DNA from: a virus
Virus record (IMG/VR): IMGVR_UViG_3300043570_004127
Coordinates: 105,328-169,327 of that record
DNA: 64,000 nt
Direction: 5' to 3' (one strand)
The position numbers and the translations under genes are program-made. The notes beneath the pieces were generated by a model, which saw nothing but the letters and a program-made list of their open reading frames with translations, ran no database searches and was not told the origin of the DNA. Positions 16,020 through 33,830 of the stretch are shown in pieces (position 1 is the first letter of the stretch; the number at the start of each line of letters is the position of its first letter).

Positions 16020-17306
16020 ATGACAATCCAGACATTTACAGCAGGACAAAGACTGACAGCGCTTCAGCTGAACACGCTCCAGGCAAGTGATTTTAATTTT
16101 ACACGTAACGTTCGAAATGATTTGACGTACACTTTCGCCCTTTCAGATAAAGGTAAATTGGTAGAAAGCACTAATGCTGGTGCGGCTGTTTTCACGATAG
16201 CCAATGACAGTTCTGTCGAATTTACCGTCGGCGACAGAATCGATGTTCTTCTTGCTTCTGTTGGCTCGGTAACCATTTCTCCTGCCTCTGGGGTGACCCT
16301 GTATGCCGAGGGCGACATCACAACAGTTGCCTCAGCATGGACAAGGCTCACCCTTATCAAGAGAGCGGAAAATTCCTGGGTTATGACCGGTACTGGAATG
16401 TCTGTCCAGACCGTGGAACTAGACGACCTTGCAGTCACGACTGCAAAAATCGCCAACCTCAACGTTACAACTGGAAAAATAGCAGATGATGCGGTTAACG
16501 GCGACAAAATTGCGGACTCTTCTGTAACCTCGGCACACATTGTTGATGGGACCATCGTCAACGGGGACGTCAGTGCTTCTGCAGCGATTGCTTATAGCAA
16601 ATTGAATCTTGGGACGTCAATCGTTAATGCTGATGTGAGTGCATCTGCTGCGATTGATTATGCCAAGTTAAATCTTGGCACATCAATTGTTAATGCTGAC
16701 GTCAGTGCATCTGCTGCGATTGTTGACACAAAACTTGCAACCATCTCAACCGCCCTAAAGGTATCGAACTCAGCAACGACAGCAACGAATGCTAATACGG
16801 CTTCTGCAATTGTTGCCCGCGATGCTTCTGGCGACTTTTCCGCTGGAACCATTACTGCAAATTTGACAGGCATAGCAACCTATACGGCGGAGTGGGTTCT
16901 TGGAGCAAATGGTTCTAGTCACTACACTTTTGCAGGACCAGGTTTCACTGGTTCTGAAGACGACCCCATCCTCCACCTGGTTAGAGGGCAAAAATATAAA
17001 TTCACAAATACGATGGGAGCTCATCCGTTCAGAATCCAAAGCACTGTAAATGGTTCTACGGGAACTGCGTACAATGACGGAATAACAAACAACGATGTTT
17101 CGAACGGAACATTAATTTGGGATGTTCAGTTTGACGCTCCTACTGTCCTTTACTACCAATGCACTGCTCACGGAACAATGGGTGGCGCAATTTATATTGT
17201 TAACGACACTGCTTCAATGATTGGTACTCGCACTGTGTTCGTTCAACAAGCTACGCCAACCGCTCTTGCGACTGGGGATATCTGGTTCCAGGTAACAGGA
17301 CTCTAA
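16020..17306 (+). CDS. Tail fibre protein A
   Basis: TFTAGQRLTA anchor-like start; VTTAKIA and IVNADVSASAAI repeats; DPILHLVRGQKYKF...HPFRIQ...LYYQCTAHGTMGG cupredoxin-like domain; C-terminal PTALATGDIWFQV. Confidence 0.8.
   Translation: MTIQTFTAGQRLTALQLNTLQASDFNFTRNVRNDLTYTFALSDKGKLVESTNAGAAVFTIANDSSVEFTVGDRIDVLLASVGSVTISPASGVTLYAEGDITTVASAWTRLTLIKRAENSWVMTGTGMSVQTVELDDLAVTTAKIANLNVTTGKIADDAVNGDKIADSSVTSAHIVDGTIVNGDVSASAAIAYSKLNLGTSIVNADVSASAAIDYAKLNLGTSIVNADVSASAAIVDTKLATISTALKVSNSATTATNANTASAIVARDASGDFSAGTITANLTGIATYTAEWVLGANGSSHYTFAGPGFTGSEDDPILHLVRGQKYKFTNTMGAHPFRIQSTVNGSTGTAYNDGITNNDVSNGTLIWDVQFDAPTVLYYQCTAHGTMGGAIYIVNDTASMIGTRTVFVQQATPTALATGDIWFQVTGL
16554..16736 (+). repeat. Intragenic ~66-bp (22-aa) tandem repeat, about 3 copies
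   Basis: IVNGDVSASAAIAYSKLNLGTS / IVNADVSASAAIDYAKLNLGTS / IVNADVSASAAIVDTKL. Confidence 0.85.
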
Positions 17307-17307
17307 T

Positions 17308-19194
17308 ATGGCAATTCAATGGGGTGCATACGTTGGCCCTGCGTCAGGCTCAGGATTTAGTACTTCCAACAGGATGCGCGTTGGCGTTGAGCTTACCGCT
17401 TCAACTCCAGCGTCAGGTCTGGATACAACCAGCACCATAACTGCTCAGATGTACACCCAGAACGAATTGTCTGGTACATCAAACTGGAATGATGCTCAAA
17501 CACTGTCATCCGTTGCAAGCGTTGCTGGAGCCACATGGGGAGCGGGTGGTGCGGCTTTTACAAACCAGGAGTCAAACGGAATAACTGCTAGAGGTGTTCT
17601 TAAAACCTACACCTATACATACTCAACCTACGGTTCCAGCCCTGGAAATATCTCTTTCCAAGCAACTCTCGGTGGAGCGTTTAACGGCATCACTCCGACC
17701 GTGACTGCAACTCTTGCAATTCCCGCAAGACCTGTTACAACGACTACCACAACTACTACAACTACTACCACAACGACCACACCAGCACCGCCGTTTTTCC
17801 CGCCAGAATTTACACCGGCAACGACTACAACAACGACTACCACTACGACGACTACGCTCCCTCCGGCTACTGCTCCAGGCGCACCAACAACAGTTCTCGG
17901 AACTGCTGGTAATGCTCAGGTTGCATTGTCTTGGACAGCTCCAGCTTCGAATGGTGGGGCATCGATTACCGATTATGTAGTGCAGTATTCTTCTGACTCG
18001 GGCTCAACATGGGCAACATTTGCTGACGGTACATCAACTGCAGCGTCCGCCACAGTAACGGGTCTGACGAACGGAACAAGCTACATATTCCGTGTCGCAG
18101 CAGTGAACAGTGTTGGGACTGGAAGTTACTCAACATCATCGTCGGCAGTGACGCCGGTAACTACGCCGGGGGCACCAGTAACGATTACCGCAACTCCTGG
18201 TAGTGGAGAAGTTGGATTGACATGGCTTGCCCCTGCATCAACAGGTGGGTCAAGCATCACTGATTATTCCGTTCAATATTCTTCTGACTCGGGTGGAACG
18301 TGGAGCTTGTTTTTTGAGGGCGTGTCAACCGCAACATCAGCAACTGTTACAGGCCTGACGAACGGAACGAGTTACACATTCCGTGTTGCTGCGACAAACA
18401 GTGTTGGGACTGGACCTTACTCATTGTCATCGTCGGCAGTGACGCCTTCTGCTGCAACAACTACGACTACAACCACCACTACAACTGCTGCCCCTACGAC
18501 GACTACAGCTACAACCGCTGCTCCTGGTGTGAGTATCTCCAAGGTTTGGAATGGTTCATCCTGGGTTGCTACAACCCCCCAGGTATGGAACGGAACGGCA
18601 TGGGTGTCAGCAATATCCCGCGCATGGGATGGTATTCAATGGGTGGCTCCAGGGGCTACGACTACGACGGCTGCTCCAACGACAACTACCACTACCACGA
18701 CGACGCTTGCTCCAACGACTACAACAACGACTACCACTGCCGCCCCTACGACTACAACAACGACTACCACTGCCGCTCCTACGACTACGGCTGCGCCTAC
18801 AACAACTGGAGCCCCTCCATGCTTCGGTTGTACTACTGCCTCGTGGGACGGTGTCACGTATTCATGCGATGGCACAATGAGTTACGAGTATTGGACGGCT
18901 GGATGTCCTGGATGTACAGGTGAAGGCGGATATAACGGAGCCTACAGAGACGGGAAGTGCGGTTACACGGCACCCGTGACCACCGAGGCCACGGCTGCAC
19001 CAGTTGTTTGCACTCCTTTCGACGGATATTCCTGGACTGGGGGCTATTACTATGGAGCACTCAACGAAGGTGGAGCGAGCTGTGCAACTTGGTGTAGCTG
19101 CAACCCAGTCACCAATGGCTATAGTCAATCTGTATGGAAAATATACGCCAAAGCCGGTTGTGGAAACGCCAACCTATTCATAGGCTGTAGTTAA
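17308..19194 (+). CDS. FN3-domain virion protein with mucin-like poly-Thr tracts and a Cys-rich C-terminus
   Basis: Two FN3 domains (LSWTAPASNGG...DYVVQYS...VTGLTNGTSYIFRVAAVNSVGTG), three T/TTTAAP tracts, a PPFFPPEF motif, 12 C-terminal Cys. Confidence 0.85.
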   Translation: MAIQWGAYVGPASGSGFSTSNRMRVGVELTASTPASGLDTTSTITAQMYTQNELSGTSNWNDAQTLSSVASVAGATWGAGGAAFTNQESNGITARGVLKTYTYTYSTYGSSPGNISFQATLGGAFNGITPTVTATLAIPARPVTTTTTTTTTTTTTTTPAPPFFPPEFTPATTTTTTTTTTTTLPPATAPGAPTTVLGTAGNAQVALSWTAPASNGGASITDYVVQYSSDSGSTWATFADGTSTAASATVTGLTNGTSYIFRVAAVNSVGTGSYSTSSSAVTPVTTPGAPVTITATPGSGEVGLTWLAPASTGGSSITDYSVQYSSDSGGTWSLFFEGVSTATSATVTGLTNGTSYTFRVAATNSVGTGPYSLSSSAVTPSAATTTTTTTTTTAAPTTTTATTAAPGVSISKVWNGSSWVATTPQVWNGTAWVSAISRAWDGIQWVAPGATTTTAAPTTTTTTTTTLAPTTTTTTTTAAPTTTTTTTTAAPTTTAAPTTTGAPPCFGCTTASWDGVTYSCDGTMSYEYWTAGCPGCTGEGGYNGAYRDGKCGYTAPVTTEATAAPVVCTPFDGYSWTGGYYYGALNEGGASCATWCSCNPVTNGYSQSVWKIYAKAGCGNANLFIGCS

Positions 19195-19230
19195 GCGCAA
19201 ATTCTATTCCTAGAATAAACAGGAGAATAC

Positions 19231-19467
19231 ATGTCAGACGCACCAAGATTCATCAACCCACGAGAAACACCAGACGGATTCGAATGGTTTGCCTTTGTTG
19301 TAGATGGCGAAGTGGCTTGGTCGGAGCCTGTACCAATCCAAGAAGAAGCAAAAATTGCTGCACTTTTGTCTGGTGTGCAAGCGGTACGTCTTGCCGGAGA
19401 TGAAAGATTCACGGTTATTTCTGGATACGGATACACGGATGGTGTATTCACTCCTCCGACTGTCTAA
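19231..19467 (+). CDS. Small hypothetical protein (fibre-associated)
   Basis: SD AGGAG; 78 aa; upstream TAGAAT at 19211-19216. Confidence 0.7.
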   Translation: MSDAPRFINPRETPDGFEWFAFVVDGEVAWSEPVPIQEEAKIAALLSGVQAVRLAGDERFTVISGYGYTDGVFTPPTV

Positions 19468-19497
19468 ATTTTCCTTATATTGATGTAGGATGCCTTT

Positions 19498-19728
19498 ATG
19501 ACAAGTCCATGGCAAGAGTATAAAAAAAAGCTCGGCGACACACGTCCGTGGGATTTGGTAAACCCACATATTGAACACGTTTCCGAGGACGTTTCATCAG
19601 CGCGATACGCAATATGTGAAGCGTGTCCAAGTTTGCTAAAACTTACCCACCAGTGCAAAGAATGTGGTTGCTTCATGAAACTAAAAGTAAAACTACCTGC
19701 AGCAGCTTGCCCGCTCGGCAAATGGTAG
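19498..19728 (+). CDS. Small Cys-rich metal-binding protein (DUF6171-like)
   Basis: RYAICEACP...QCKECGCFMKLKVKLPAAACPLGKW pattern. Confidence 0.75.
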   Translation: MTSPWQEYKKKLGDTRPWDLVNPHIEHVSEDVSSARYAICEACPSLLKLTHQCKECGCFMKLKVKLPAAACPLGKW

Positions 19729-20741
19729 TAAAAGAGAATTTAAATAAGTACAAGATAACCGATGCCCAAATAGACCCATTCGGTTACTGTAACGCGAAGT
19801 GCTGGTTCTGCCCTGTCAGGTATCAAAAGAATCCCCCACATGCAGCAAAGCATATGCCGGTTGATTTATTGGACAAGATATTTTCTGAGTTGATAAAAGA
19901 AAAAGAAAAACCAAACGGTGTAGTTGAAGCAAACTTTAATCATTTTTATACCGCTCACTACAATGAGATTTTGCTATACAAGCACTTGGACGAGATGCTG
20001 TATTTGGCCAAATGTTATGGGTTAAAAACCATGATACTTTCAAACGGTGTCAATCTCACCGAAGAAAAGGTGGAGATACTCCAACGACACAAAGACGTTA
20101 TAAGCGGAATCAATTTAAACATTCCCGCATTTGAGGATGGTTTATGGCAGGAACGTTCAGGAGTCACAAGATACGATTTTGACCATGTAAGACAAAACGT
20201 ATTACGAACAATGGAAGCGTTTCCAGAATACACAGCAAATGGAGCGTTTTCAATAGGTGTAAATATACCCACCGCGCCGCACATGGAAGAAAATGGCGGA
20301 CGGATGGAGATGCTCGAGAATGCACCAAAGATAGATTTGGACCCCTTGACAGGAGAATCTCCGACACAAGTCGCATTGGCTAAATCGCTATTTCCCGGTC
20401 TCACTGTTTATCCAGTGGAATCATTAATTGATAGGGCTGCGATACTGGCAGAACATAAAGTGATTGATAATGCCAAAGCAATTTTGAGGTACAACAAAGG
20501 CGATAAAACTAGAGTAGTTGGTTGTTCTAATGGAACAATTGGGCGAATATATGGCTGGCTGCATGTCAACGCCCTTGGGGAAGCGTTTCTCTGCTGTAAC
20601 GATTATGACTTTGACTATACTTTTGGCAACATGAACGACAGCACACTCGACGAGATATGGCGTAGCGACGAACATGCCGCAATGATAGAGAGAGCCTTGG
20701 GTTCAATATGTGTGTCTTGCGCAAGCGCTATATGGAAATGA
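19722..20741 (+). CDS. Radical SAM enzyme with SPASM/twitch domain
   Basis: CNAKCWFC (CxxxCxxC); C-terminal GCS...VNALGEAFLCCND...GNMNDSTLDEIW...CVSC; likely start ATG 19722. Confidence 0.9.
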   Translation: MVVKENLNKYKITDAQIDPFGYCNAKCWFCPVRYQKNPPHAAKHMPVDLLDKIFSELIKEKEKPNGVVEANFNHFYTAHYNEILLYKHLDEMLYLAKCYGLKTMILSNGVNLTEEKVEILQRHKDVISGINLNIPAFEDGLWQERSGVTRYDFDHVRQNVLRTMEAFPEYTANGAFSIGVNIPTAPHMEENGGRMEMLENAPKIDLDPLTGESPTQVALAKSLFPGLTVYPVESLIDRAAILAEHKVIDNAKAILRYNKGDKTRVVGCSNGTIGRIYGWLHVNALGEAFLCCNDYDFDYTFGNMNDSTLDEIWRSDEHAAMIERALGSICVSCASAIWK

Positions 20742-20742
20742 T

Positions 20743-21666
20743 ATGGCATCGATATTCATACAAATACCTTCTTATAGGGATTTTGAATTAAACAAAACTG
20801 TTGCCAGCGCAGTGACCAATGCGAGCGGAGCAAACAAGCTTTCGTTTGGTATTCATAACTGCATTTTGTTTGATGGCGAAATAGAAGTTAAAACAGATTA
20901 CCCAGAATGGGTCACTATTAACTCGGCGACAAGTATTGCACCGCAAAACATAGGCCTACAGCAGGCAAGGTATTTAGCAAACGAGTTTTACGACGGAGAA
21001 GACTACTACCTTCAAATTGACTCGCACATGCGATTTTTCGAAAATTGGGACGCATCACTCATCAACGATATACGCTACTATCAAAACCTGGGCTTGCCTA
21101 AGCCACTTATTACTCAGTATCCGCCAGCTTATACATACAACGACGACGGAAAAGAAAACATTCAATTCAATCAGCCGTTTTATCAATGTGGAATCTGGTT
21201 TGGCGAGAAGGTAGAAAATTTTAAGGAAACCCTAATTCCCACACAGCAAGCTCGGGTTCTTTTTGATACTTGTGGATTTATTAAATCTGTTTCTGGCGGT
21301 TTTATATTCACACTCGGAAGTTTTGCAAAAGTTAAACCAAATCCAAAAATTGCCTTTTGGGGAGAGGAACCACTGATTGCCGCAAGGGCTTTTACTCATG
21401 GATTCGACCTGGTGATGCCCTTCTCTCACAATGTGTCTCATTTATATCACTCTCAACAGACATTTGCCAAAACACGTCGCCACCACATATGGGGTGATTT
21501 TTCAGAAATCTGGGGGATGATGGATGCTGAATCCAGAACAGAATACAAGAGAATATTCACCGAACGAATAATTGGCGAAGGGGCATTAGGGACAGAACGC
21601 ACCCTAGATGAATACGAGGAGTTTTCTGGTTTAAATTTCAGAGACGGAACCATAACCTCATTATGA
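20743..21666 (+). CDS. GT60-family glycosyltransferase ([Skp1]-hydroxyproline / polypeptide alpha-GlcNAc transferase-like)
   Basis: SIFIQIPSYRD.EL, G...AR, YYLQIDSHMRF..NWD, LITQYPP, SGGFIF, FWGEE, RAFTHGFD, HLY: the Gnt1/GlcNAc family motif series; start ATG 20743. Confidence 0.85.
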   Translation: MASIFIQIPSYRDFELNKTVASAVTNASGANKLSFGIHNCILFDGEIEVKTDYPEWVTINSATSIAPQNIGLQQARYLANEFYDGEDYYLQIDSHMRFFENWDASLINDIRYYQNLGLPKPLITQYPPAYTYNDDGKENIQFNQPFYQCGIWFGEKVENFKETLIPTQQARVLFDTCGFIKSVSGGFIFTLGSFAKVKPNPKIAFWGEEPLIAARAFTHGFDLVMPFSHNVSHLYHSQQTFAKTRRHHIWGDFSEIWGMMDAESRTEYKRIFTERIIGEGALGTERTLDEYEEFSGLNFRDGTITSL

Positions 21667-22241
21667 AGAATCTCAAAAAGATAAGTGACGATATATATAT
21701 TGTAAACCTTGTTAGCGGTCGACTTGCTGCGAGGATTATGGATTCCATAAAATTACTCGAAAAGAAAGAGCCATGTGGAGGAAGTGAACGAAACCAGTTT
21801 ACGACACATTCCATAAGTGATTCCGCCTGTGTTGGTGGAATAAGACTTACAACAATTCTGCAATCGATATTCAAGAGACTAACAAATCAATACTTTCTGA
21901 GTACTGGCGTAAGACTAGAAGTTCCATCGTTCCCGAATCAAAGCTGCAATATCAAGAGTCAAGTCAAAGGCCAATCACACGGGGTGCATACCGATGGAGG
22001 GGACAAGGATTACGGAATTGGCAGGATTCTCCACTCGTCGGTTATATGCCTAAATGATGACTACGAGGGCGGGAGCACGCAGTTTTACCTAACTGGGACA
22101 ATGGAAGAACCAAACATTGATATTGACATAAAACTCAAGGCAGGTCAAGCATTAATATTTGACGCGAATCTGAACTATCATGGGGTTACCGAAGTCCTAT
22201 CTGGGACTAGGTTTAGCTTGATTCAATTTTGGAGAGAGTAG
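21663..22241 (+). CDS. 2OG-Fe(II) oxygenase (prolyl-4-hydroxylase-like) 1
   Basis: HTD...LNDDYEGG...HGVTEVLSGTRFS. Confidence 0.9.
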   Translation: MKNLKKISDDIYIVNLVSGRLAARIMDSIKLLEKKEPCGGSERNQFTTHSISDSACVGGIRLTTILQSIFKRLTNQYFLSTGVRLEVPSFPNQSCNIKSQVKGQSHGVHTDGGDKDYGIGRILHSSVICLNDDYEGGSTQFYLTGTMEEPNIDIDIKLKAGQALIFDANLNYHGVTEVLSGTRFSLIQFWRE

Positions 22242-22243
22242 TC

Positions 22244-23314
22244 ATGAATACAGATAGCGATAACAGATTCTACGGAACGACACCAGATGTCCGCAATGAC
22301 GAAACTGTGTCCGAAATCTTTAACATGCAATTTGAAGATTTGGGTGGTGGGGTAATTCGTTTCCCGGCAGCAATAGATGTTGACAAAGACATGCTTTTAC
22401 CGTATATAGATAAAAACTCAAAATCCGCGCACGAACAAAGATGGACGTGGGCCAAGGATGAAGAAGGCAATGACTACGCAATAAACGAAGATGGCAACAA
22501 GTTTTCTCCAGAACAGGTAAAGATGGTTCCAGTAAGACTGCTTGAAGTAGTTAACTCTGGGACAGAGCCAGAGATGATAGAAGTGTTTAGATACTGGGAA
22601 GACACTATTTACAAGTGTCTCCTGCGGTACATAGATATATTCCCAATGGTCCTTGGAACAATCTGGTGGAGAACCAAGGGTCACGTAATGCGCTATGACG
22701 AGGGGGCATTCCTTGGCATACACAACGACAACGACTCAAATTACAGGGCCACAGGTGGCGAGCGATTTGTGCCGCGTGGACAAATACAGATGCGTCAAGT
22801 TGTGGCGGTGATGTTCTACATTAACGATTGTGTTGAAGATGAATCAGAACTAGATGGCACAAACTTCACTGGTGGGGAATTAGTTTTCCCATATCTCGGA
22901 ATAAAGAACACTCCAAAAACCGGGGATGTTGTTATCTTCCCTGCAAACTACATTGCAACACATGGAGTTGAGCCAGTGAAAAAGGGCGTCCGATATGGAT
23001 ACCTTGAATTCTTCAGTCAAGGAAGCAGTCACGATGAAGTTGGAATTAACGTTTCAGAACCAGATAAATGTGATGGCTGGTGTAGGCCACACTTCATAGA
23101 TGCGCTTTATGACGACTACAAGCACTACTGCAAGCAAACCGAATTCATGGGGAATGGTGATTCAGCAAAAGACGCAAACGGAATGTTTAAAGCAAATCCG
23201 GTTTATCAAAACAGAACGCTTGAAGGTGAAAACGGTCTAAAGAAGGCTTATTCACATTCCCAGGTTGTATACGACAATGAGCAGCGCGGCAGGGAACACA
23301 GCAGCTTGTACTAA
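22244..23314 (+). CDS. 2OG-Fe(II) oxygenase (P4H-like) 2, LGGG subfamily
   Basis: HND...FTGGELVF...FPANYIATHGVEPVKKGVRY; start ATG 22244. Confidence 0.9.
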   Translation: MNTDSDNRFYGTTPDVRNDETVSEIFNMQFEDLGGGVIRFPAAIDVDKDMLLPYIDKNSKSAHEQRWTWAKDEEGNDYAINEDGNKFSPEQVKMVPVRLLEVVNSGTEPEMIEVFRYWEDTIYKCLLRYIDIFPMVLGTIWWRTKGHVMRYDEGAFLGIHNDNDSNYRATGGERFVPRGQIQMRQVVAVMFYINDCVEDESELDGTNFTGGELVFPYLGIKNTPKTGDVVIFPANYIATHGVEPVKKGVRYGYLEFFSQGSSHDEVGINVSEPDKCDGWCRPHFIDALYDDYKHYCKQTEFMGNGDSAKDANGMFKANPVYQNRTLEGENGLKKAYSHSQVVYDNEQRGREHSSLY

Positions 23315-24045
23315 GTGTTTTCTACGATACCAACGTGAACATAACCCTGCCCGGAATGCTGAACATCTGCTGCAAGACTATTTAGCTTGTTTTCTTCCTG
23401 AACCTCCATCTTTGCATCCCCTTGGCAGAACCACTGCAGATAAGAATTCCTTACCCCGGATGTGATTGGCTCAACTTCATGACAGCCCATAAATGACGAC
23501 GGATATATCAAAACCGAGCCAACTTTTGGACGTACGGTTATACCCCACGGCCTGAATCTTATATTTCCTCCCTCGTATTCCTCATTGAGGGCCATTGAAC
23601 CAGTAAGGGTGTTGTGGAGCGGGAAGGTGTTCAGAACATTCCCTTCCTTGTCGTAAGGTAGGGCACAGTCGCTATGCGGTCCAATAGTTTGACCAATTGA
23701 GTACGAAGCAATCTGCCCACCTGTTCTCCAGCCAATACACTCAATTGCTACTGGGAACGAGCGACAATATTCAATTAGGCATCTATAAATGCCGTCATTA
23801 ATCAAGGTTGTTATTTCTTTTGTGAATTCGGAGCCGTATGAAAGTCCATTAAACCTGGTTGGCATTTTTAATACGTGCTCTTGCGTAACCGCGTAACCGC
23901 CATCATTGGTTAATGACTCAACATTCACGCCATGCGTTGCATCTAGATTTTCAGCAAAAATTCTTTCAAGATATGCCTCGAAATTGGATGCGTCTACCAC
24001 ATCTTCAAACAGCATTACCCCGTTCCCAAGATGCTTCACAATCAT
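23311..24045 (-). CDS. 2OG-Fe(II) oxygenase (P4H-like) 3, LGGG subfamily
   Basis: HSD...LNEEYEGG...HEVEPITSGVR. Confidence 0.9.
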   Translation of the reverse strand: MIVKHLGNGVMLFEDVVDASNFEAYLERIFAENLDATHGVNVESLTNDGGYAVTQEHVLKMPTRFNGLSYGSEFTKEITTLINDGIYRCLIEYCRSFPVAIECIGWRTGGQIASYSIGQTIGPHSDCALPYDKEGNVLNTFPLHNTLTGSMALNEEYEGGNIRFRPWGITVRPKVGSVLIYPSSFMGCHEVEPITSGVRNSYLQWFCQGDAKMEVQEENKLNSLAADVQHSGQGYVHVGIVENT

Positions 24046-24914
24046 GAGTGCATACTTTCAACCAGGCTGTGACCAACCGAAGTTTTTCCTGGGTCGACCT
24101 TATTTAGGTAATCAGTAAAGTCGGAGCGAAGTGTTGGCATGTACACATTGGTTGCGGTTTTTGCCAACTCAGGCGACTCCACTGGGTCAACTATGTGCTC
24201 GTTAACAGCCTCGTTTGGTGTTCCGTGGGAATACCATCCAAGATACGTGTACCTACTACCGCCGGTAGTCTCCTTGACTTCATGAGCAGCCATGTAGTTC
24301 GACGGGAACATCAATATGTCGCCGGCGGAAGGTTTGTAGTCAATGTCAAGATAATTAAAGTAATGATGCCCGCCTTCAAAATTATCGTTCAAGTACACAA
24401 TGCATGAGATTGTGTTTCTCGTGGCCAGCTGGTCGTGTGGGTGAGGGAATCCATAGGCATAGTCGGCACTCGTGTCGGAGTGCGGCCCAAGAAACTTACC
24501 ACCATTCTCCACAGAATAAGAAACCAGGTGACCTTTTACTTTCCACCAAACGTTCTTGTATGCCAAGGGGAAAAGATAGAAGTATTTGAGTAGATATGCG
24601 TCTTTTGATTTCTCCACAAACTCCAGAAAATCACTTATGTCCTCATCTGGATTCTGGTGTATTCGTGAACCGCGGCGAGGCATTTGATTCACTCCGTCGG
24701 CATCAAAATAGTACCCACTTCTATTTATGAATGCAGGTTCACCTGTCTCTGGGTCTATTGCCTCTTCGTACATTTGAGCGCGTTCTTCCGCGACTTGTTT
24801 TTCTGCAAATGCGCTTGCCCAATCGTTGTCGAAAGAGATGGCTCCACTAAAAACAACCACTCCACCGCCGAGGTGTTTGGGCTCCACATCGTTGAACTTC
24901 TGCTCTTGATTCAT
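24042..24914 (-). CDS. 2OG-Fe(II) oxygenase (P4H-like) 4, LGGG subfamily
   Basis: HSD...YLNDNFEGG...HEVKETTGGSRY. Confidence 0.9.
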   Translation of the reverse strand: MNQEQKFNDVEPKHLGGGVVVFSGAISFDNDWASAFAEKQVAEERAQMYEEAIDPETGEPAFINRSGYYFDADGVNQMPRRGSRIHQNPDEDISDFLEFVEKSKDAYLLKYFYLFPLAYKNVWWKVKGHLVSYSVENGGKFLGPHSDTSADYAYGFPHPHDQLATRNTISCIVYLNDNFEGGHHYFNYLDIDYKPSAGDILMFPSNYMAAHEVKETTGGSRYTYLGWYSHGTPNEAVNEHIVDPVESPELAKTATNVYMPTLRSDFTDYLNKVDPGKTSVGHSLVESMHS

Positions 24915-24932
24915 ACAGTGTATGATAGCCCA
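24915..24932. promoter_or_regulatory. Putative bidirectional leaderless promoter
   Basis: + strand TATGAT (24921-24926) N6 ATG 24933; - strand TATCAT (24927-24922) N7 ATG 24914; no SD for either gene. Confidence 0.6.
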
Positions 24933-25256
24933 ATGAGCGAAAAAAACGAGGCATTCAATAGGTGGACTGAAATAATGGTTCAGGAGTTCGCCAAGCTACC
25001 TAATATGGTCGAAAAAGATGGCTACAACAATTGGGCAGACAACATACTCCCAGGCCAAATCGAGGACAAGTATTACACGGTCGGCCGCACTGGAGCAGAA
25101 GCAATGATGGCTTTCTGGGGAGACATTGCCGATGGCAAGATGGCCGACTTGTTAAATGAGTTCAACGTACCAAATCCACTTGGGCTAATACACTCATCAA
25201 GCACGCTTGCTAAACACCTTTTTGTGACCGAAAAGATGTTCTCAAAAAAAACTTAG
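24933..25256 (+). CDS. Hypothetical protein (107 aa)
   Basis: ATG 24933 (MSEKNEAFNRW...) fills the gap between two - strand genes; the track start at 24684 overlaps oxygenase 4. Confidence 0.7.
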   Translation: MSEKNEAFNRWTEIMVQEFAKLPNMVEKDGYNNWADNILPGQIEDKYYTVGRTGAEAMMAFWGDIADGKMADLLNEFNVPNPLGLIHSSSTLAKHLFVTEKMFSKKT

Positions 25257-26113
25257 TGGTCGTCGGCCCTGCTTAGATAGTCAACTTTTTCTTGCGGAGC
25301 ATTCGAAATAGAACCATACTTTTCAATTAAATGGTTTTCATAATCCTTGATTATCGAAGGCAGCCACCATTGACCGTTGTTCTGGAACATCGTTTCTTCT
25401 GGATGCGCTGGTGAGCATCCGCGCTCATCATCTTGCGAACCCTGAGCAAACCATGTCAGGTAGGAATACCTTACCCCTCGTGTTACTTCGTTTATCTGAT
25501 GAGCACCTATATAGTTTGCCGGCATCAGAACAATCGCGCCGGTTGACGGAGCAATATCTATATCGAAATACGGGATTGTCATGGTTCCACCAGAGAACGA
25601 ATACTCAACTGATTCGTCATCGGTGCAGTCGTTGAAATATACAAGCGCTGAAAGAACGTTGCGTGTTGCATGTTGTTCTTTGGGCTCTCTACCGTAGCGA
25701 TAGTTCACATCGTTGTCGGCGTGAAATCCAAGACCGCCGCTTTTTGCATACCTCAAAACATGACCAGGGCTCTTCCACCAGAGACACTGCAGGACAGCGG
25801 GAAACATTTCTATATAATGCAAAAGTGCGCCGTATATTGCTTTTTCACATTCTTGGAAAAATGGGATATCCAAGCTTCCTATCCTTATTGGAGCTTTATC
25901 CATGTCCTCTAGGTCGTAGATGAACCCACCCTTATTAATTGCGTGGAGTGGATTGCCGTCTTCATCCTTAATAATCGTGTACGAGTTATTGAAAGCTTCA
26001 TCCTTCTTTTTGTCAAGATACTCAAATGCCTCTTTTTGTGGAATATTGATTGCATTCTTAAAAATTACAGTTCCGCCGCCAAGGTGTTCTGGATTAAAGT
26101 TGAAATTGCTCAT
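25253..26113 (-). CDS. 2OG-Fe(II) oxygenase (P4H-like) 5, LGGG subfamily
   Basis: HAD...YFND...FSGG...HQINEVTRGVRY. Confidence 0.9.
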   Translation of the reverse strand: MSNFNFNPEHLGGGTVIFKNAINIPQKEAFEYLDKKKDEAFNNSYTIIKDEDGNPLHAINKGGFIYDLEDMDKAPIRIGSLDIPFFQECEKAIYGALLHYIEMFPAVLQCLWWKSPGHVLRYAKSGGLGFHADNDVNYRYGREPKEQHATRNVLSALVYFNDCTDDESVEYSFSGGTMTIPYFDIDIAPSTGAIVLMPANYIGAHQINEVTRGVRYSYLTWFAQGSQDDERGCSPAHPEETMFQNNGQWWLPSIIKDYENHLIEKYGSISNAPQEKVDYLSRADDH

Positions 26114-26721
26114 AAAAGAGATTGTACAGCCTGGATGATGGTCATATCCATCTCGCTAGTTTCTACTGTTTCTGCTAGTGGTTTAACGCTAAATCTAAAT
26201 CTGTACATCTGCCTGCCGTCTTTGCCAACTATAAATTTTTCGTAATAAGCATGTATTTTCTGCACCGCCCCACCGGCAAGGTTTTGACCCTGGGCAGCAG
26301 ACAGACTGGTTCCAGCTTTTGTATCATCAACAAGCCTTTTTGCATACCCTTTCATATGTGAGCATATTGGGTGTTCGTTATCTCCATTGATTTCCACTTT
26401 TTCCGTAATAGGAAAAGTCACAAATGGGTAAACTTCTTTAATAAAGTTAGATATTTCATGGTTATCCAAAGGCTCCATGTTCCAGAATTGGTTAGTTGGA
26501 ACTCCTACAACGCTAAAATCATCAAACATTTCATGCAGTTTCTGGAGTTCCCACAGATTTTTGGAAGTTCTCCCGTATGACCAAATGCGACTACATTTTG
26601 GCTCGTACCCCGCTTTTGAACCAAAAGGGAAAAAGAGCGTTACTTTACCCTTAAGGCTAGAAAGTATGTTCTCATCCCCATCTATCGATTTGATTGGTAT
26701 GTCGTAAATTGATTGATTCAT
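26110..26721 (-). CDS. Glutathione peroxidase-fold protein, atypical (no canonical active-site Cys)
   Basis: SIYDIPIKSIDG, LKGKVTL, VVGVPTNQF..MEP, TFPITEKVEING...HP, EKFIVGKDG; SKAG in place of SKCG. Confidence 0.8.
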   Translation of the reverse strand: MNQSIYDIPIKSIDGDENILSSLKGKVTLFFPFGSKAGYEPKCSRIWSYGRTSKNLWELQKLHEMFDDFSVVGVPTNQFWNMEPLDNHEISNFIKEVYPFVTFPITEKVEINGDNEHPICSHMKGYAKRLVDDTKAGTSLSAAQGQNLAGGAVQKIHAYYEKFIVGKDGRQMYRFRFSVKPLAETVETSEMDMTIIQAVQSLL

Positions 26722-27623
26722 GACAAATGTCCGGCTATTGAATATTCCGCAAACTGACCAATCTTCGCCAAACCCACAACATCACCATTTTCTTCATCGA
26801 TAGAAAATCTTATACTTATTTCGGCTATTACTGGTGTATCCACAGAGAACGATGCATCGAACGAGGTATCCGTATTAGTAAAACTCTCTATAAAGTACTT
26901 CCCGGTTGAATTAAATATTTCAGCAACATTTCCTTTTATCCCAAGGTTCACATCTTCTTTTCCAAATGGGGTGTTAATCCTAAGACAGTAAAACTTATCA
27001 TACCCACCATTTTCATTTTCGGCGGAGCGAGAGTACGCAGTCCAGTCTTGGGTTGGTTTTACGTTAGGGTCTTTCGGTGCAAAATTTGCACTTACGACCA
27101 AACGTGCTTCCTCTCTGTTTCGATGCCTATTTGTCATGTGTGTTAAATAGGAATTAAAGATTATCAAATCTCCTGTTTCCGGTTTTATCTCTATGGAGTT
27201 TTCGATTGTGTTTCCAGCATTCACTAGAAATATCAAATCGGCGCTTCCGTCTGGGGCGCACGGATAGTAAGCGATTGAGAAATACTCTTCGGGGTGTAGA
27301 TGCGTGTTTGATTTGTGGGAGTGTGCCGAGACCGACTGCCCAAATTCAAGGCTCAGTGTCCATATGTCGCTCATAACCATCTCTCGACCAACCGCGGTTG
27401 AAACTCGTTCCGTCAACTTGTCAATGAGCTTTTCTGACTCAATCATTCCAAATGGATATTTTCTATCTTCGTAATATGTGTGATGCTTGTCGTCCATAAA
27501 CGAATCGTCTATTTCTCCGTGAGCACCAGCAATCTCTTCCAGAAGTTTGGAATTATCAATACCGATTATCTTCGTTTTAAGGACATCAATCGACACCAGG
27601 TTTATTTTCTCAATATCACTCAT
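26718..27623 (-). CDS. 2OG-Fe(II) oxygenase 6 (HxH type, TIGR02466-like) with extra C-terminal domain
   Basis: HSH...FSIAYY...PETGDLIIFNSYLTH...RLVVSANF. Confidence 0.8.
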   Translation of the reverse strand: MSDIEKINLVSIDVLKTKIIGIDNSKLLEEIAGAHGEIDDSFMDDKHHTYYEDRKYPFGMIESEKLIDKLTERVSTAVGREMVMSDIWTLSLEFGQSVSAHSHKSNTHLHPEEYFSIAYYPCAPDGSADLIFLVNAGNTIENSIEIKPETGDLIIFNSYLTHMTNRHRNREEARLVVSANFAPKDPNVKPTQDWTAYSRSAENENGGYDKFYCLRINTPFGKEDVNLGIKGNVAEIFNSTGKYFIESFTNTDTSFDASFSVDTPVIAEISIRFSIDEENGDVVGLAKIGQFAEYSIAGHLS

Positions 27624-28290
27624 AGAAGAATTCGCCTAATTTTAGCGCAGTTGGTGGATTGTCTCGATGCCACACGTTTGTGACCATGACTTGCCTGATT
27701 CCGCTCTTTGCAGGTGTGGTCCCATGGACAACGTGGCCAGTATCAAAAATGATTACACGGTTACCCTTGTAGGCGATTCTTTCACGCTCTTCAACTGGAA
27801 CTAATAACGTGTTGATGTTTTCAGACTCAATAGCCAGTTTTTCTCCATCTTTCAAAATGGCTTTATTGTATATTTCAACAAAACCACCATCCTGATTGTC
27901 GAGACCATAGAATATCGAGCCAGTCAATGGGCCACTAAAAGTCTTTGACTCCTGGTAAAGAAAGGTGTCTTCATCGACATGAACATCAAGATACTGGCCT
28001 GGGAGATAGGTTCTTGTCCAGTACTCAATACCGAGGATTTCGCTTGTATCGCATGGAAGGTTGTCTTCCCAAATTGCCTGAACGACCCGCTTCCTTAATG
28101 TGTTTGCTGGAGTGGACCACCATCCATCCCAAAACATATATGGAGCAAAACAACTTGACTTTTCGTAATGGTACGAATTCAGCTCTGTAGCTAATCTTTC
28201 GTCAGAGCCCATTGACTCTGGGAAAAATAGTTTGTCAGCTAATACATCTTCATACAAAGAATCATTGAGTGCATTGTCTTTTATAATCAT
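27616..28290 (-). CDS. 2OG-Fe(II) oxygenase 7
   Basis: GIEYW...HVDED...GG...GNRVIIFD.GHVVHGTTP..SGIR. Confidence 0.85.
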   Translation of the reverse strand: MIIKDNALNDSLYEDVLADKLFFPESMGSDERLATELNSYHYEKSSCFAPYMFWDGWWSTPANTLRKRVVQAIWEDNLPCDTSEILGIEYWTRTYLPGQYLDVHVDEDTFLYQESKTFSGPLTGSIFYGLDNQDGGFVEIYNKAILKDGEKLAIESENINTLLVPVEERERIAYKGNRVIIFDTGHVVHGTTPAKSGIRQVMVTNVWHRDNPPTALKLGEFFYE

Positions 28291-29021
28291 GATTCTCCTT
28301 TGACGACAATAGTCATTCCGTAAAACAGAGGAACGTGATACACGCTGCAGCCGGATATCCTCTTAAGCGCTTCGTGGTATCCCCAGATTGGAGTTGCCTT
28401 TGTGTGATTGTTGTACAGAAACATACTGTCAGAGGTATTTTGGATTATCAGAATCCCGTTATCCTCGAGCCTGTCGACAAAGGCGCTAACAGGGATTAGT
28501 GGATTCTCCATATCCTGCGACCAAGAGAGCATCATGTCGTACTTATTGTTTACATGCTTTTCAAAATCCTGCATTGTAACGACGTCATAGTCGTCAATTG
28601 GGTCTTGGAACTTTTCATACAGACTAAGTTTTTTGTTGTTGAGAAAGGTAATGTGGGCCCCATGTATCGACTTAAAAACCTTTAATCTGAACCTATCGAG
28701 ACCACCTGAAATTGCCAATACATTTTTCTTCTTTGAGATATCCATAATCCCAAGAATTAGAAGAATCGACATCCATTGAGCCTGACCATACGCACTTGAA
28801 AGATTTGGTCTTGGATAATGGACAACGAACTCATAATCGCTCGCACCGCCGGTGGCAATATTCCTTCTATCAATACCAACCGTATTGAAAAGATACTCGG
28901 CTATAGCGACAGAGTGACCACCATCTTCGCGGTTGCATTGGTCTGCATATTCTTCCCAATTAAACTGAAGAGAACTAAAATCAAAAGAAACTTCAGGTTC
29001 ATACCTTTTATCTTGTTCCAT
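28287..29021 (-). CDS. Hypothetical protein, possible degenerate class I methyltransferase fold
   Basis: KKNVLAISGG, KYDMML, DRLEDNGILII resemble SAM-MTase strands. Confidence 0.45.
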   Translation of the reverse strand: MEQDKRYEPEVSFDFSSLQFNWEEYADQCNREDGGHSVAIAEYLFNTVGIDRRNIATGGASDYEFVVHYPRPNLSSAYGQAQWMSILLILGIMDISKKKNVLAISGGLDRFRLKVFKSIHGAHITFLNNKKLSLYEKFQDPIDDYDVVTMQDFEKHVNNKYDMMLSWSQDMENPLIPVSAFVDRLEDNGILIIQNTSDSMFLYNNHTKATPIWGYHEALKRISGCSVYHVPLFYGMTIVVKGES

Positions 29022-29289
29022 TTGTCACCTCGTATAGAGCAGCCTGCACATCAAACCAAGCACGGCGGACATTTCTTGTCAGTGTGATATTTTGTCTTTT
29101 TATATAGTCCTTAACACTGGAATCAATTTCGGTGTCATGGTCATATCGGTATCTGTCTCGAATTGCGTTTACGCAATCGTCTATTGTGATTTCGTCAAAA
29201 CGCGATTCATCAAACCCGAGTATGAACAAGTATGCTGCAAGCTGTTCTGAACGATACGCCAAATCGGCAACTGGGTCATACCTGCTCAT
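29008..29289 (-). CDS. Hypothetical protein (93 aa)
   Basis: Overlaps neighbours in a tightly packed - strand operon. Confidence 0.65.
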   Translation of the reverse strand: MSRYDPVADLAYRSEQLAAYLFILGFDESRFDEITIDDCVNAIRDRYRYDHDTEIDSSVKDYIKRQNITLTRNVRRAWFDVQAALYEVTNGTR

Positions 29290-29467
29290 CTTTTTCCTTT
29301 TTCACATCAAACATTGCTACACCTTGACACATTGATACAGGCTTACCAGCAACATAATAGACACCGGTGCTTGAGTCCCATTCAATAATCTCGTTATCCC
29401 ACTCTTCGGCGTCAGTTATTGCTTCACCTTTTCTGGTGCTCATCTTGAAGTCTTGTGGCTCATCCAT
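29276..29467 (-). CDS. Hypothetical protein (63 aa)
   Basis: Tightly packed operon. Confidence 0.6.
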   Translation of the reverse strand: MDEPQDFKMSTRKGEAITDAEEWDNEIIEWDSSTGVYYVAGKPVSMCQGVAMFDVKKEKDEQV

Positions 29468-29675
29468 CTTTAAGTGCTTCCAATGCGGAGTACTCGTTTG
29501 ACATAAGCCTAAAAGCGTTGTACTCTATTGTTCCTTCTTCGTGCGTATTTTCCCCAGAATACACGGGGGTCATACCCTCGCTCGCCATCAACTGACTCAT
29601 CTCCCCTATTGACGCGGTCAGAAATCGTGCAGCCCTATTCTTTGCCATTAGAGGGTCATATTTTCCAAGTTTCAT
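29460..29675 (-). CDS. Hypothetical protein (71 aa)
   Basis: ATGA coupling with the upstream oxygenase. Confidence 0.65.
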   Translation of the reverse strand: MKLGKYDPLMAKNRAARFLTASIGEMSQLMASEGMTPVYSGENTHEEGTIEYNAFRLMSNEYSALEALKDG

Positions 29676-30289: not shown

Positions 30290-30291
30290 TA

Positions 30292-32196: not shown

Positions 32197-32250
32197 AGTC
32201 CCAGTCTATACATATCGGAGATGTCCATACGCCACCTGGAGATACGTGAT

Positions 32251-33105: not shown

Positions 33106-33166
33106 CCTGTCAAAGCCCAATGTTTTTACCCGCAACCTTCACAAACGCTTCATCCATTACTGCAGT

Positions 33167-33829: not shown

Positions 33830-33830
33830 A

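Follow-up and report, generated by a model that had tools for sequence, protein, structure and literature searches.

Gene content of the locus

We analysed a 64,000-nucleotide stretch (the window; positions 105,328 to 169,327 of IMG/VR record IMGVR_UViG_3300043570_004127) of a Kyanoviridae-like (cyanophage-like) myovirus. psbA was not found in the virus genome, and a Gp23 family search carries no weight because its controls were unmatched.

A plus-strand gene (17308–19194) encodes a fibre-like protein of 628 aa that has poly-Thr/Pro linkers, a pair of FN3 domains (fn3, E 2.9e-26) and a Cys-rich C-terminus. Downstream lies a tight co-directional string of plus-strand genes. Its first member is a 78-aa ORF (19231–19467) with no Pfam match, weak homologues of which are present at the same position in four related loci (L003, L009, L022 and L027) and nearby in a fifth (L028). 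Next is orf76 (19498–19728), which encodes a 76-aa Cys-rich mini-protein similar to DUF6171 (Pfam accession PF19668, E 2.6e-5; 25 bits, just below the cut-off of 27). orf76 scores 0.96 against the atlas DUF6171 viral clusters and carries the C-terminal pattern C-x2-C...C-x2-C-x-C...C-P-x-x-K-W. A radical SAM/SPASM gene (19722–20741; Pfam accessions PF04055 and PF13186), encoding a CxxxCxxC motif and, at the C-terminus, the Cys cluster of SPASM, shares 7 nt with orf76, and the ATG of a GT60-family glycosyltransferase gene (20743–21666) lies one base past its TGA.

Two genes for 2OG-Fe(II) oxygenases follow on the same strand. The preliminary description had noted an ATGA overlap between the GT60 gene and a P4H-like gene, with a second such gene behind it, and coordinates and Pfam matches (accession PF13640) confirm both. 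The GT60 TGA occupies 21664–21666, and the ATG of the first oxygenase gene (ox192; 192 aa, 21663–22241; 38 bits, cut-off 27) is at 21663. The ATG of the second (356 aa, 22244–23314; 40 bits) is three bases past the ox192 TAG (22239–22241). On the minus strand, Pfam matches identify three further 2OG oxygenases (23311–24045, 24042–24914 and 25253–26113) and a GPx-fold gene (26110–26721), in a block order shared with four other contigs. No excess of sigma-70-like promoters or terminators was detected in 17000–24200.

A GT60 enzyme with an intact motif set

The 307-aa GT60 protein matches the Pfam family ‘GlcNAc’ (accession PF11397) with E 4e-36 and 125.7 bits (cut-off 21), a profile result that bears out the family assignment made in the preliminary description; the ORF was recovered again when the whole virus genome was searched in six frames. 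The motif series originally read from the sequence is complete and family-conserved: IPSYRD at residues 8–13, QIDSHMRF at 91–98, WD at 102–103, FWGEE at 205–209 and HLY (the HxY motif) at 233–235. Across an alignment of phage and bacterial members, D13, D93, H95, W102, D103, G207, E208 and E209 are invariant and H233 and Y235 nearly so. The protein contains the elements expected of a GT-A enzyme, namely an N-terminal nucleotide-binding YRD, a DxH metal site, a GEE sugar motif and a distal His, and we take FWGEE to be the counterpart of the WGGE-type sugar-binding motif of GT27. With all its catalytic motifs intact, the ORF product is a member of the GT60 family.

PDB sequence searches with the GT60 sequence and with its profile returned nothing significant. 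The AF2 model (pLDDT 86, pTM 0.89) has as its closest PDB folds the GT27 enzymes GalNAc-T2, T1 and T4 and their relatives (E 2e-8 to 1e-6; TM up to 0.59), and its closest viral model is ‘Glycosyltransferase, GlcNAc [uncultured Caudovirales phage]’ (TM 0.93). As modelled, the enzyme combines a GT-A fold of the retaining type with a DxH metal site and is kin to GT27 polypeptide GalNAc-transferases. Inspection of the protein by eye revealed neither an N-terminal signal nor a membrane segment, and a lectin domain is absent; the enzyme is probably soluble.

Gnt1, a cytoplasmic GT60 enzyme, is the UDP-GlcNAc:hydroxyproline polypeptide GlcNAc-transferase of the Dictyostelium and Toxoplasma Skp1 pathway, in which it acts after the prolyl hydroxylase PhyA. 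The phage enzyme shares with Gnt1 its family (PF11397/GT60), the DxH and GEE motifs and an apparently soluble, cytoplasmic character, and a polypeptide acceptor is expected. To our knowledge, characterised GT60 members have polypeptide acceptors in all cases. By analogy, the enzyme is predicted to transfer GlcNAc, with retention, from UDP-GlcNAc to a Hyp or Thr hydroxyl of a polypeptide.

GT60 relatives in bacteria and other phages

GT60 relatives (28–35% identity) are encoded in the genomes of bacterial species as well, in at least 552 stretches. The family is broadly bacterial and not protist-specific, so that the ‘protist-type’ label first attached to this gene misframes it. Bacterial PF11397 members score 179–273 bits, and the phage protein, at 126 bits, therefore represents a divergent branch, a further difference from Gnt1 being its gene partners (see below).

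Eight deltaproteobacterial species genomes (Syntrophorhabdus-type MAGs) encode GT60 and radical SAM/SPASM domains in a single 622-aa protein, which is 31–34% identical to the phage protein in its GT part and 41–43% in its radical SAM part. In each of the eight, a PAAR-like (Tox-PAAR-like) gene, 94–96% conserved, ends 4 nt before the fusion gene. These loci resemble the window in combining the same two enzyme families behind a small protein gene. They differ in that the enzymes are fused and not adjacent, the upstream protein is Tox-PAAR-like and not DUF6171, and poly-Thr ORFs are absent, as they are from all 80 bacterial loci. Another bacterial relative is fused to a PqqD/RRE domain and adjoins an MbnB/TglH-type enzyme, seven tandem ORFs of ~70 aa and a ThiF-YcaO gene in a RiPP cluster; the RRE fusion points to peptide or protein substrates within the GT60 family.

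Among GenBank phages, megablast with 19500–23400 gave no match, and tblastn with GT60 found only four jumbo Xanthomonas/Stenotrophomonas phages (26% identity). A DUF6171 gene was not found beside the distant GT60 copy of one of these, XacN1, which is adjoined by a carbamoyltransferase gene. A literature search found nothing on DUF6171 and, for GT60 with phage, a passing mention in a virome preprint with no functional work.

A DUF6171-headed cassette

A single-sequence scan recovered one related viral locus only, and the locus set used here comes from an alignment-based scan. A DUF6171 gene lies upstream of GT60 in 63 of 64 loci, and a radical SAM/SPASM gene stands between the two in 44 of 64. 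GalE-like SDR genes come next in 12 of the 29 ORFs sampled downstream of GT60. Genes for the DUF6171 mini-protein, the radical SAM/SPASM enzyme and GT60, in that order, make up the conserved cassette, behind which a GalE-like epimerase gene sometimes stands. Frequent additions in relatives are this epimerase, DUF7164 and a small 2OG oxygenase. A 2OG oxygenase of some kind is present in about one in four non-redundant GT60 cassettes, where it lies in the interval from orf76 to the radical SAM gene or follows the glycosyltransferase. The GalE-like neighbours are compatible with more than one candidate donor sugar.

The cassette is mobile and lodged among tail-fibre and virion genes. DUF6171 is by far the more common component, being encoded in at least 570 viral stretches, against 72 for GT60. 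Across 70 viral loci, the genes after orf76 include a 2OG oxygenase in 42, GT60 in 14 and GT61 once; in 21 of the 70, no enzyme gene is detectable downstream. Stenotrophomonas phage Moby carries a DUF6171 gene without an enzyme gene nearby, and in S-SSM7 nucleotide-sugar genes cluster behind a DUF6171-like gene. A comparison of loci in which orf76 is followed by GT60, by an oxygenase or by neither found no partner-specific residues in orf76, whose invariant residues are identical in all three settings. Because DUF6171 is commoner than GT60 and its residues are partner-independent, the adjacency of orf76 and GT60 could partly reflect the fixed left border of a variable slot.

A predicted GT60–DUF6171 complex

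Modelling of GT60 with orf76 gave an ipSAE of 0.83 (best of three controls, 0.01). Of 80 solved complexes, 58 reach this mark, as do 2 of 110 mismatched pairs, counts that hold only roughly because our own alignments were used. The model runs share at least 70% of contacts, with a partner pLDDT of at least 74. The model supports binding of the DUF6171 protein by GT60. The modelled interface excludes the catalytic residues and so says nothing about the acceptor.

A mini-protein that heads the cassette and is predicted to bind its glycosyltransferase might itself be the substrate, matured in RiPP-like fashion by the radical SAM enzyme and GT60 (elsewhere by a 2OG oxygenase) and perhaps forming a virion spike or tip, by analogy with the PAAR-like gene before the bacterial fusion. 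The near-constant first position of orf76, the protein-modifying type of the enzymes behind it, the complex model, the RRE fusion in a RiPP cluster and the invariable PAAR-like gene are all consistent with this idea, as is the conservation of Thr15, Pro17 and Thr50 in orf76. We nonetheless consider it unlikely. The model places no conserved orf76 Thr or Pro at the GT60 catalytic residues, the sequence of orf76 does not depend on its partner, 21 of 70 viral loci, and Moby besides, lack a detectable enzyme gene for it, and the poly-Thr association described below is left unexplained. orf76 is also conserved over its whole length, without the leader/core pattern of a RiPP precursor; we rejected a RiPP-precursor identity on the basis of this uniform conservation and of the same invariant residues with any partner.

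An independent oxygenase block

ox192 matches its PF13640 profile and has the HxD...H iron triad, the basic 2OG-binding residue and the DSBH fold of the family, with H109, D111, H173 and R183 invariant. PDB sequence searches with ox192 and ox361 gave no significant match. Foldseek neighbours of ox192 are PiuC-type oxygenases, a Chlamydomonas P4H, Pseudomonas PPHD, PHD2 and Tpa1 (TM 0.6–0.7), together with the halogenase WelO5, PolD and lysyl hydroxylase. These results support placing the neighbouring oxygenases in the P4H/PHD/PiuC branch of 2OG oxygenases.

A P4H-like gene coupled to GT60 recalls the Skp1 pathway, and the preliminary description proposed a phage version of its two steps. On such a reading the oxygenase would hydroxylate Pro, for example in PPFF or PAPP linkers (a PPFF tail is encoded at 35945–36748), and GT60 would add GlcNAc to the resulting Hyp. 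The tight translational coupling in the window and the fold of ox192 argue for such a relay, as do the oxygenases present in about a quarter of GT60 cassettes and the Pro-rich (TP)n linkers found in 10 of 11 loci whose cassettes hold both GT60 and an oxygenase. A planctomycete-like bacterial protein (P0138) even joins GT60 to a C-terminal 2OG oxygenase (PF13661, 29.1 bits, cut-off 27; PF13640, 26.7 bits). However, the oxygenase domain of P0138 has no detectable similarity to ox192 or ox361, so this ‘Rosetta stone’ fusion holds only at the superfamily level.

Gene neighbourhoods speak against an obligate coupling of the PhyA-to-Gnt1 type. Only 4 of 63 related viral loci have a same-strand oxygenase directly downstream of GT60. 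Orthologues of ox192 (62–71% identical) occur in four other contigs of ~40–174 kb in the same oxygenase/GPx block without GT60, and the second oxygenase (22244–23314) is kept beside them. At least 11 genes in 21663–34448 match 2OG-oxygenase Pfams (ten PF13640, two of them just under the cut-off, and one PF13759), and with so many family members within 13 kb an adjacency of GT60 and an oxygenase is expected. GT60-only cassettes, moreover, accompany poly-Thr and not Pro-rich linkers. A search of the virus genome for Skp1 (Pfam accession PF01466) gave no match, but control genomes were likewise unmatched, so that this result carries no weight; we know of no Skp1 genes from bacteria or phages. We therefore regard the relay as improbable.

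The ATGA-coupled ox192 is part of an independent, separately conserved oxygenase block, so hydroxylation is probably parallel to GT60 activity and not a prerequisite for it. Unlike Gnt1, the phage GT60 lacks a conserved P4H partner and has DUF6171 and radical SAM/SPASM proteins as its constant partners. The association of oxygenases with Pro-rich linkers hints at proline as a candidate substrate of ox192.

Thr-rich linkers as candidate acceptors

The fibre-like gene ends 1.55 kb upstream of GT60, as the preliminary description had it (1.5 kb), and PHROG tail-protein families match its product through the FN3 region. Counting ORFs within 4 kb upstream on the same strand, we identified a poly-Thr ORF in 23 of 45 loci with GT60 and in 0 of 32 without (p 3e-7; locus counts without phylogenetic control). 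After collapse to DNA clusters, the proportions are 12 of 25 and 0 of 25 (p 9e-5), and the positive loci are distributed over 10 of 18 GT clusters. The loci without GT60 come from a narrower orf76 clade; in the same identity range the association persists, with poly-Thr ORFs in 6 of 21 loci with GT60 and in 0 of 32 without (p 0.002). On a tree of orf76, the only shared marker, the comparison of GT60 with poly-Thr yields two supported independent pairs only. The proposed link to a mucin-like gene is thus upheld as an association between loci, but half of the GT60 loci lack a poly-Thr ORF. Some GT60 loci have (TP)n linkers, which are also found without GT60. Judged from sequence, the 17308–19194 protein is the best candidate acceptor of GT60.

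A non-protein acceptor, such as LPS or a glycan of the host envelope, a small molecule or the DNA of the phage, would fit the GalE-like epimerases and the XacN1 carbamoyltransferase that adjoin GT60 homologues, the S-SSM7 gene order and a weak Tet_JBP match of ox192. Cyanophage glycosyltransferase clusters have been interpreted as modifying the capsule or surface (PMC7824862). The present cassette lies in a virion-gene region and not in a sugar-gene island, and the nearest solved folds are polypeptide GalNAc-transferases. The established polypeptide acceptors of characterised GT60 members likewise make a non-protein acceptor a poor prospect. Phage DNA-glycosylating GT-As are JGT-like, of the R..DDD..EDY/F type, and stand beside a C5-methyltransferase and 5mYOX/TET genes (10.1101/2023.12.21.572611), so that both motifs and neighbours differ. 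We rejected glycosylation of DNA hydroxymethyl-pyrimidines: the genome has no PF00145 methyltransferase, its sole Tet_JBP match scores 23.6 bits (cut-off 34.9), and GT60 has DxH in place of R..DDD..EDY/F.

We favour, with a probability of roughly 0.5, a reading in which the GT60 cassette is a cytoplasmic protein O-glycosyltransferase module for Thr-rich virion linkers, with acceptor and donor predicted. GT60 would be active in the host cytoplasm during infection, dock onto the DUF6171 protein, with the latter as adaptor or co-substrate, and then move a UDP-hexose, more likely a UDP-HexNAc, onto hydroxyl groups of phage proteins. The most probable acceptors would be the poly-Thr linkers of the FN3 fibre-like protein, with hydroxylation as a parallel modification of Pro-rich linkers. 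We infer the protein acceptor, the Thr residue, the donor sugar and the roles of DUF6171 and the radical SAM enzyme from these combined patterns.

Mucin-type O-glycans are initiated on Thr/Ser by the Golgi pp-alpha-GlcNAc-transferases (GT60) of trypanosomatids and Dictyostelium and by GT27 enzymes. The poly-Thr association fits Thr-directed initiation of this type, and GT27 provides the nearest solved folds. In contrast to the Golgi enzymes, the phage GT60 has neither a lectin domain nor an evident membrane anchor, and it would work in the bacterial cytoplasm on phage proteins with a predicted small Cys-rich partner. Virion glycosylation is known in mycobacteriophages and giant viruses, examples from the latter being the Mimivirus L230 lysyl hydroxylase/glycosyltransferase and the PBCV-1 prolyl 4-hydroxylase; in Mimivirus, hydroxylase and glycosyltransferase are joined in one pathway. 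As in those systems, virus-encoded transferases beside structural genes would modify low-complexity extensions of virion proteins. The present system belongs to another glycosyltransferase family, has separable hydroxylase and glycosyltransferase modules and is described from sequence only.

Together, GT60 and the poly-Thr tail-fibre-like proteins hint at a mucin-style sugar coat on the virion. If GT60 glycosylates poly-Thr linkers, this would be phage-run mucin-type O-glycosylation in the bacterial cytoplasm, with a bearing on the virion stability, host recognition and protease resistance of aquatic phages. More tentatively, and with the odds against it, Kyanoviridae-like myoviruses may use a modular ‘linker-modification code’. 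Its DUF6171-headed slot would hold enzymes that match the linkers encoded upstream, GT60 and radical SAM enzymes with poly-Thr mucin-like linkers and P4H-like oxygenases with Pro-rich extensin-like ones. DUF6171 would dock these enzymes, and the fused GT60–radical SAM protein would serve PAAR-like spikes of bacterial contractile injection systems. Such a code would give prokaryotes a cytoplasmic equivalent of the mucin and extensin types of protein modification.

Cyanophage-type myoviruses encode many 2OG oxygenases and scattered glycosyltransferases, which have been without assigned substrates since they were first catalogued (PMC3037559). Our analysis offers candidate substrates for both, namely linkers rich in Thr or in Pro within fibre-like proteins of the virion. 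In phages and in the PAAR-like loci of bacteria, it also connects GT60 with the uncharacterised DUF6171 and with a family of radical SAM/SPASM enzymes.

A phage-encoded GT60 glycosyltransferase

We identified a glycosyltransferase ORF (20743-21666, + strand, 307 aa) whose ATG lies one base past the TGA of a radical SAM gene. In a profile search, it matched Pfam accession PF11397 ('GlcNAc', GT60 family) with 125.7 bits (E 4e-36; cut-off 21), and it matches PHROG 24687 'glycosyltransferase' end to end. The full motif series named in the preliminary description is present, namely IPSYRD (residues 8-13), QIDSHMRF..WD (91-103), FWGEE (205-209) and HLY (233-235), and the motif residues do not vary among 18 metagenomic homologues of 56-80% identity. 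In an alignment of phage, jumbo-phage and bacterial sequences, D13, D93, H95, W102, D103, G207, E208, E209, R215, T218 and G220 never vary, and H233 and Y235 hardly do. This gene is a genuine GT60 enzyme encoded by a phage.

The AlphaFold2 model of GT60 (pLDDT 86, pTM 0.89) has a GT-A fold. The chain starts with the first beta-strand of this fold, and inspection of the N-terminus by eye revealed neither a signal nor a membrane segment. The nearest solved structures are GT27 polypeptide GalNAc-transferases (GalNAc-T2, E 2e-8; T1, TM 0.59), followed by KfiA and LARGE1. The closest BFVD model carries the UniProt auto-name 'Glycosyltransferase, GlcNAc [uncultured Caudovirales phage]' (40% identical, TM 0.93) and ranks above Megaviridae and Pandoravirus relatives. 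Phage PF11397 genes have thus been recorded previously through automatic annotation; we found no functional study of them in the literature. GT60 relatives also occur in at least 552 stretches of bacterial species genomes from many phyla (28-35% identity), and the 'protist-type' label initially given to the proposed pathway is therefore unsuitable.

A conserved DUF6171-radical SAM-GT60 cassette

An alignment-based scan recovered 72 viral loci with GT60 homologues (best matched segment 37-81% identical). A homologue of orf76, a 76-aa Cys-rich DUF6171-like mini-protein (19498-19728, +), is encoded upstream of GT60 on the same strand in 63 of the 64 loci with sufficient upstream sequence, and 44 of those have a radical SAM/SPASM gene (19722-20741, + in the window) between the two. 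DUF6171, radical SAM/SPASM and GT60 make up the actual module. In a more distant glycosyltransferase clade, an NAD-dependent epimerase gene overlaps the glycosyltransferase end (Pfam accession PF01370, 12 of 29 downstream ORFs); GalE is its best NCBIfam model, with a score far under the equivalog cut-off. Some cassettes include DUF7164, and one protein is a DUF7164-GT60 fusion. All three module genes, 53-81% identical to those of the window, also lie on a 2.4-kb contig (CAIUKZ010000130.1) binned in a Bacteroidales MAG, which is almost certainly a mis-binned phage fragment.

Eight Syntrophorhabdus/deltaproteobacterial species genomes encode GT60 (N-terminal) and radical SAM/SPASM (C-terminal) domains in a single 622-aa protein (L172:4595-6869; also L166, L169, L170, L179, L182, L198 and L227). 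Its radical SAM/SPASM domain is 41-43% identical to the window's, and its motifs are all intact. Because the two are fused in one bacterial protein, the GT60-radical SAM association appears to be functional, beyond position alone. In each of the eight genomes, the fusion gene starts 4 nt past a Tox-PAAR-like (DUF4150) gene; between genomes, the Tox-PAAR-like gene is 94-96% conserved and the fusion enzyme 72-74%. This pair may be a modification system of a contractile-injection spike tip. At another bacterial locus (L080:8001-18187, in a 4.3-Mb genome), a GT60-PqqD/RRE fusion neighbors an MbnB/TglH-type enzyme, seven tandem ORFs of ~70 aa, a ThiF-YcaO gene and another PqqD protein, which together look like a glycosylated RiPP cluster.

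The mini-protein as partner or border

Orf76 scores 25 bits against Pfam DUF6171, slightly below the cut-off of 27, and 0.96 with the Atlas viral DUF6171 clusters. Its invariant residues are W5, R36, C40, C43, T50, C53, C56, C58, M60, K63, C71, P72, K75 and the C-terminal W76. Conservation is uniform along the protein, which does not fit a classical RiPP precursor, though orf76 could itself be a modified mini-protein.

The mini-protein is far more frequent than GT60 in viral contigs (at least 570 stretches). Among 70 loci that include downstream sequence, a 2OG oxygenase comes after it in 42, GT60 in 14 and radical SAM in 4, with nothing detected in 21; at one viral locus, a GT61-family glycosyltransferase follows directly (Pfam accession PF04577, L087:5229-6122). 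Cultured phage S-SSM7 carries a DUF6171-like gene (SSSM7_248; locus 198178-203202 of this Synechococcus phage) after which come genes for a 2OG oxygenase, for a PhyH-domain protein and for three nucleotide-sugar epimerases, and Stenotrophomonas phage Moby has the mini-protein gene without an enzyme gene nearby. Because the mini-protein is common, keeps the same invariant residues in all downstream contexts and also occurs without an enzyme, its adjacency to GT60 may arise in part because it marks the constant left edge of a slot whose content varies.

Contrary to a purely positional reading, structure modeling supports a complex between GT60 and the mini-protein. The complex model has an ipSAE of 0.83 (best of three controls, 0.01). 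Of 80 solved complexes, 58 reached this mark, as did 2 of 110 mismatched pairs, a benchmark that applies only roughly here because we used our own alignments; at least 70% of contacts agree between runs, and partner pLDDT is at least 74. The modeled interface joins GT60 residues 112-118, 175-181, 222-227 and 286-294 to the Zn-ribbon-like half of the mini-protein. Since the catalytic residues fall outside this interface, the predicted contact looks like docking and shows no acceptor in the active site.

Poly-Thr linkers as candidate acceptors

A Thr/Pro-rich protein with two FN3 domains (17308-19194), previously described as mucin-like, ends 1.55 kb upstream of GT60. We scored the products of genes lying up to 4 kb upstream of orf76 at 77 non-redundant loci, counting at least 8 Thr per 10 residues as a poly-Thr tract and at least 5 Pro of 12 as Pro-rich. 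Poly-Thr tracts occur at 23 of 45 loci with GT60 versus 0 of 32 without (Fisher p 3e-7), where linkers are (TP)n, (PPVT)n or poly-Pro. Poly-Thr-positive loci occupy 10 of 18 glycosyltransferase clusters (70% identity), and bacterial GT60 loci lack poly-Thr ORFs (0 of 80). The contrast persists among loci in an equal orf76-identity range (6/21 versus 0/32) and after collapse to 40 DNA-similarity clusters (12/25 versus 0/25, p 9e-5); all linker associations are plain or cluster-collapsed counts, the orf76 tree being too poorly resolved for phylogenetic control. This co-occurrence supports the upstream Thr-rich protein as the probable GT60 target. A second large poly-Thr ORF (58345-62673, +, 1442 aa, no PHROG match) is a possible further acceptor candidate.

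DNA is an unlikely substrate of GT60. The phage GT-A enzymes known to modify DNA resemble JGT, with motifs unlike those of GT60, and their genes adjoin those for a TET-like enzyme and a C5-methyltransferase (10.1101/2023.12.21.572611); in this virus genome, no C5-methyltransferase was found and the sole Tet_JBP match falls short of the cut-off. Some other non-protein acceptor is conceivable. 

The DUF6171-radical SAM-GT60 module would most likely O-glycosylate Thr-rich linkers of fibre-like virion proteins, with GT60 as the putative O-glycosyltransferase, a composite reading to which we assign a probability of about 0.5.

Oxygenases beside the cassette

As described initially, the GT60 stop overlaps (ATGA) the start of a prolyl-hydroxylase-like gene (ox192, 21663-22241, +, 192 aa) and a second such gene follows (ATG at 22244); both pass Pfam accession PF13640 (2OG-FeII_Oxy_3). 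The proposal that they form a Skp1-like two-step pathway with GT60 gained no support. In the 63 loci whose sequence extends 1.5 kb or more past GT60, a 2OG oxygenase is the next downstream gene in 4 when only the GT60 strand is counted and in 7 when both strands are, a count that divergent oxygenases can escape in tblastn (as did one in L069, detected later). Ox192 belongs to its own tight family (56 proteins, 56-83% identity), and its orthologues also occur in four further contigs (about 40-174 kb), where they open a block with the gene order of the window: ox192 and a ~350-aa oxygenase, and after these, encoded on the minus strand, ~250-aa, 290-aa and 286-aa oxygenases and a glutathione-peroxidase (GPx)-fold gene (26110-26721 in the window). 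GT60 is absent from all four; its place upstream of ox192 is taken by a carbamoyltransferase, a small ORF or a further oxygenase. The ATGA junction therefore joins two independently inherited modules, and the apparent coupling is a local juxtaposition.

Some small 2OG oxygenase does occur in about a quarter of non-redundant GT60 cassettes, mostly placed after orf76 and before the radical SAM gene, and is thus a facultative, not obligate, companion. In one planctomycete-like contig, GT60 continues at its C-terminus into a 2OG oxygenase domain that is only marginally recognised and showed no similarity to ox192 or to ox361, another oxygenase. Linker type differs by cassette content: poly-Thr tracts occur in 22 of 34 GT60-only, 1 of 11 GT60-plus-oxygenase, 0 of 21 oxygenase-only and 0 of 11 cassettes with neither, and Pro-rich linkers in 17, 10, 18 and 4, respectively. 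In the 40-cluster analysis, Pro-rich linkers accompany oxygenases in 16/21 versus 9/29 (p 0.004). This pattern suggests that P4H-like oxygenases may modify Pro-rich linkers in parallel with GT60.

In ox192, H109, D111, H173 and R183 are invariant. The best fold matches of its model (pLDDT 78.5) are uncharacterised PiuC/PKHD-type oxygenases, WelO5 and PolD, followed by Chlamydomonas P4H, Pseudomonas PPHD, PHD2, Tpa1 and lysyl hydroxylase (TM 0.6-0.7, 12-18% identity). 'Prolyl-hydroxylase-like' is a fair label at the level of fold clade and does not narrow ox192 to one substrate. An FN3-domain protein (35945-36748, -) whose ~77-aa terminal tail consists solely of PPFF/PPYF repeats is an obvious candidate substrate of the P4H-like oxygenases. 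Short PPFF motifs also border the Thr tracts of the 17308-19194 protein and its relatives (L005, L006 and L117).

The window is the final 64 kb of a 169-kb IMG/VR record. Its genes include those for a tail sheath, for tail-fibre-like proteins and for a virion structural protein that shares 44% identity with S-RSM4 and S-PM2 (Kyanoviridae) proteins; psbA was not found in this virus genome. The cassette lies between plus-strand structural genes (to 19194) and a run of 2OG-oxygenase-family genes (at least 11 with Pfam matches in 21663-34448, two of them slightly below cut-off), beyond which lie GPx-fold genes, followed by structural genes on the minus strand. Cyanomyoviruses are known to carry many 2OG oxygenases without an assigned function (PMC3037559). 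Besides the block member, two further GPx-fold genes (34476-35366 and 35363-35941) are also on the minus strand; all three are interspersed with the oxygenase run. A DUF6065 protein (30292-30996, -, E 4e-45) inside the run recurs in one related contig.
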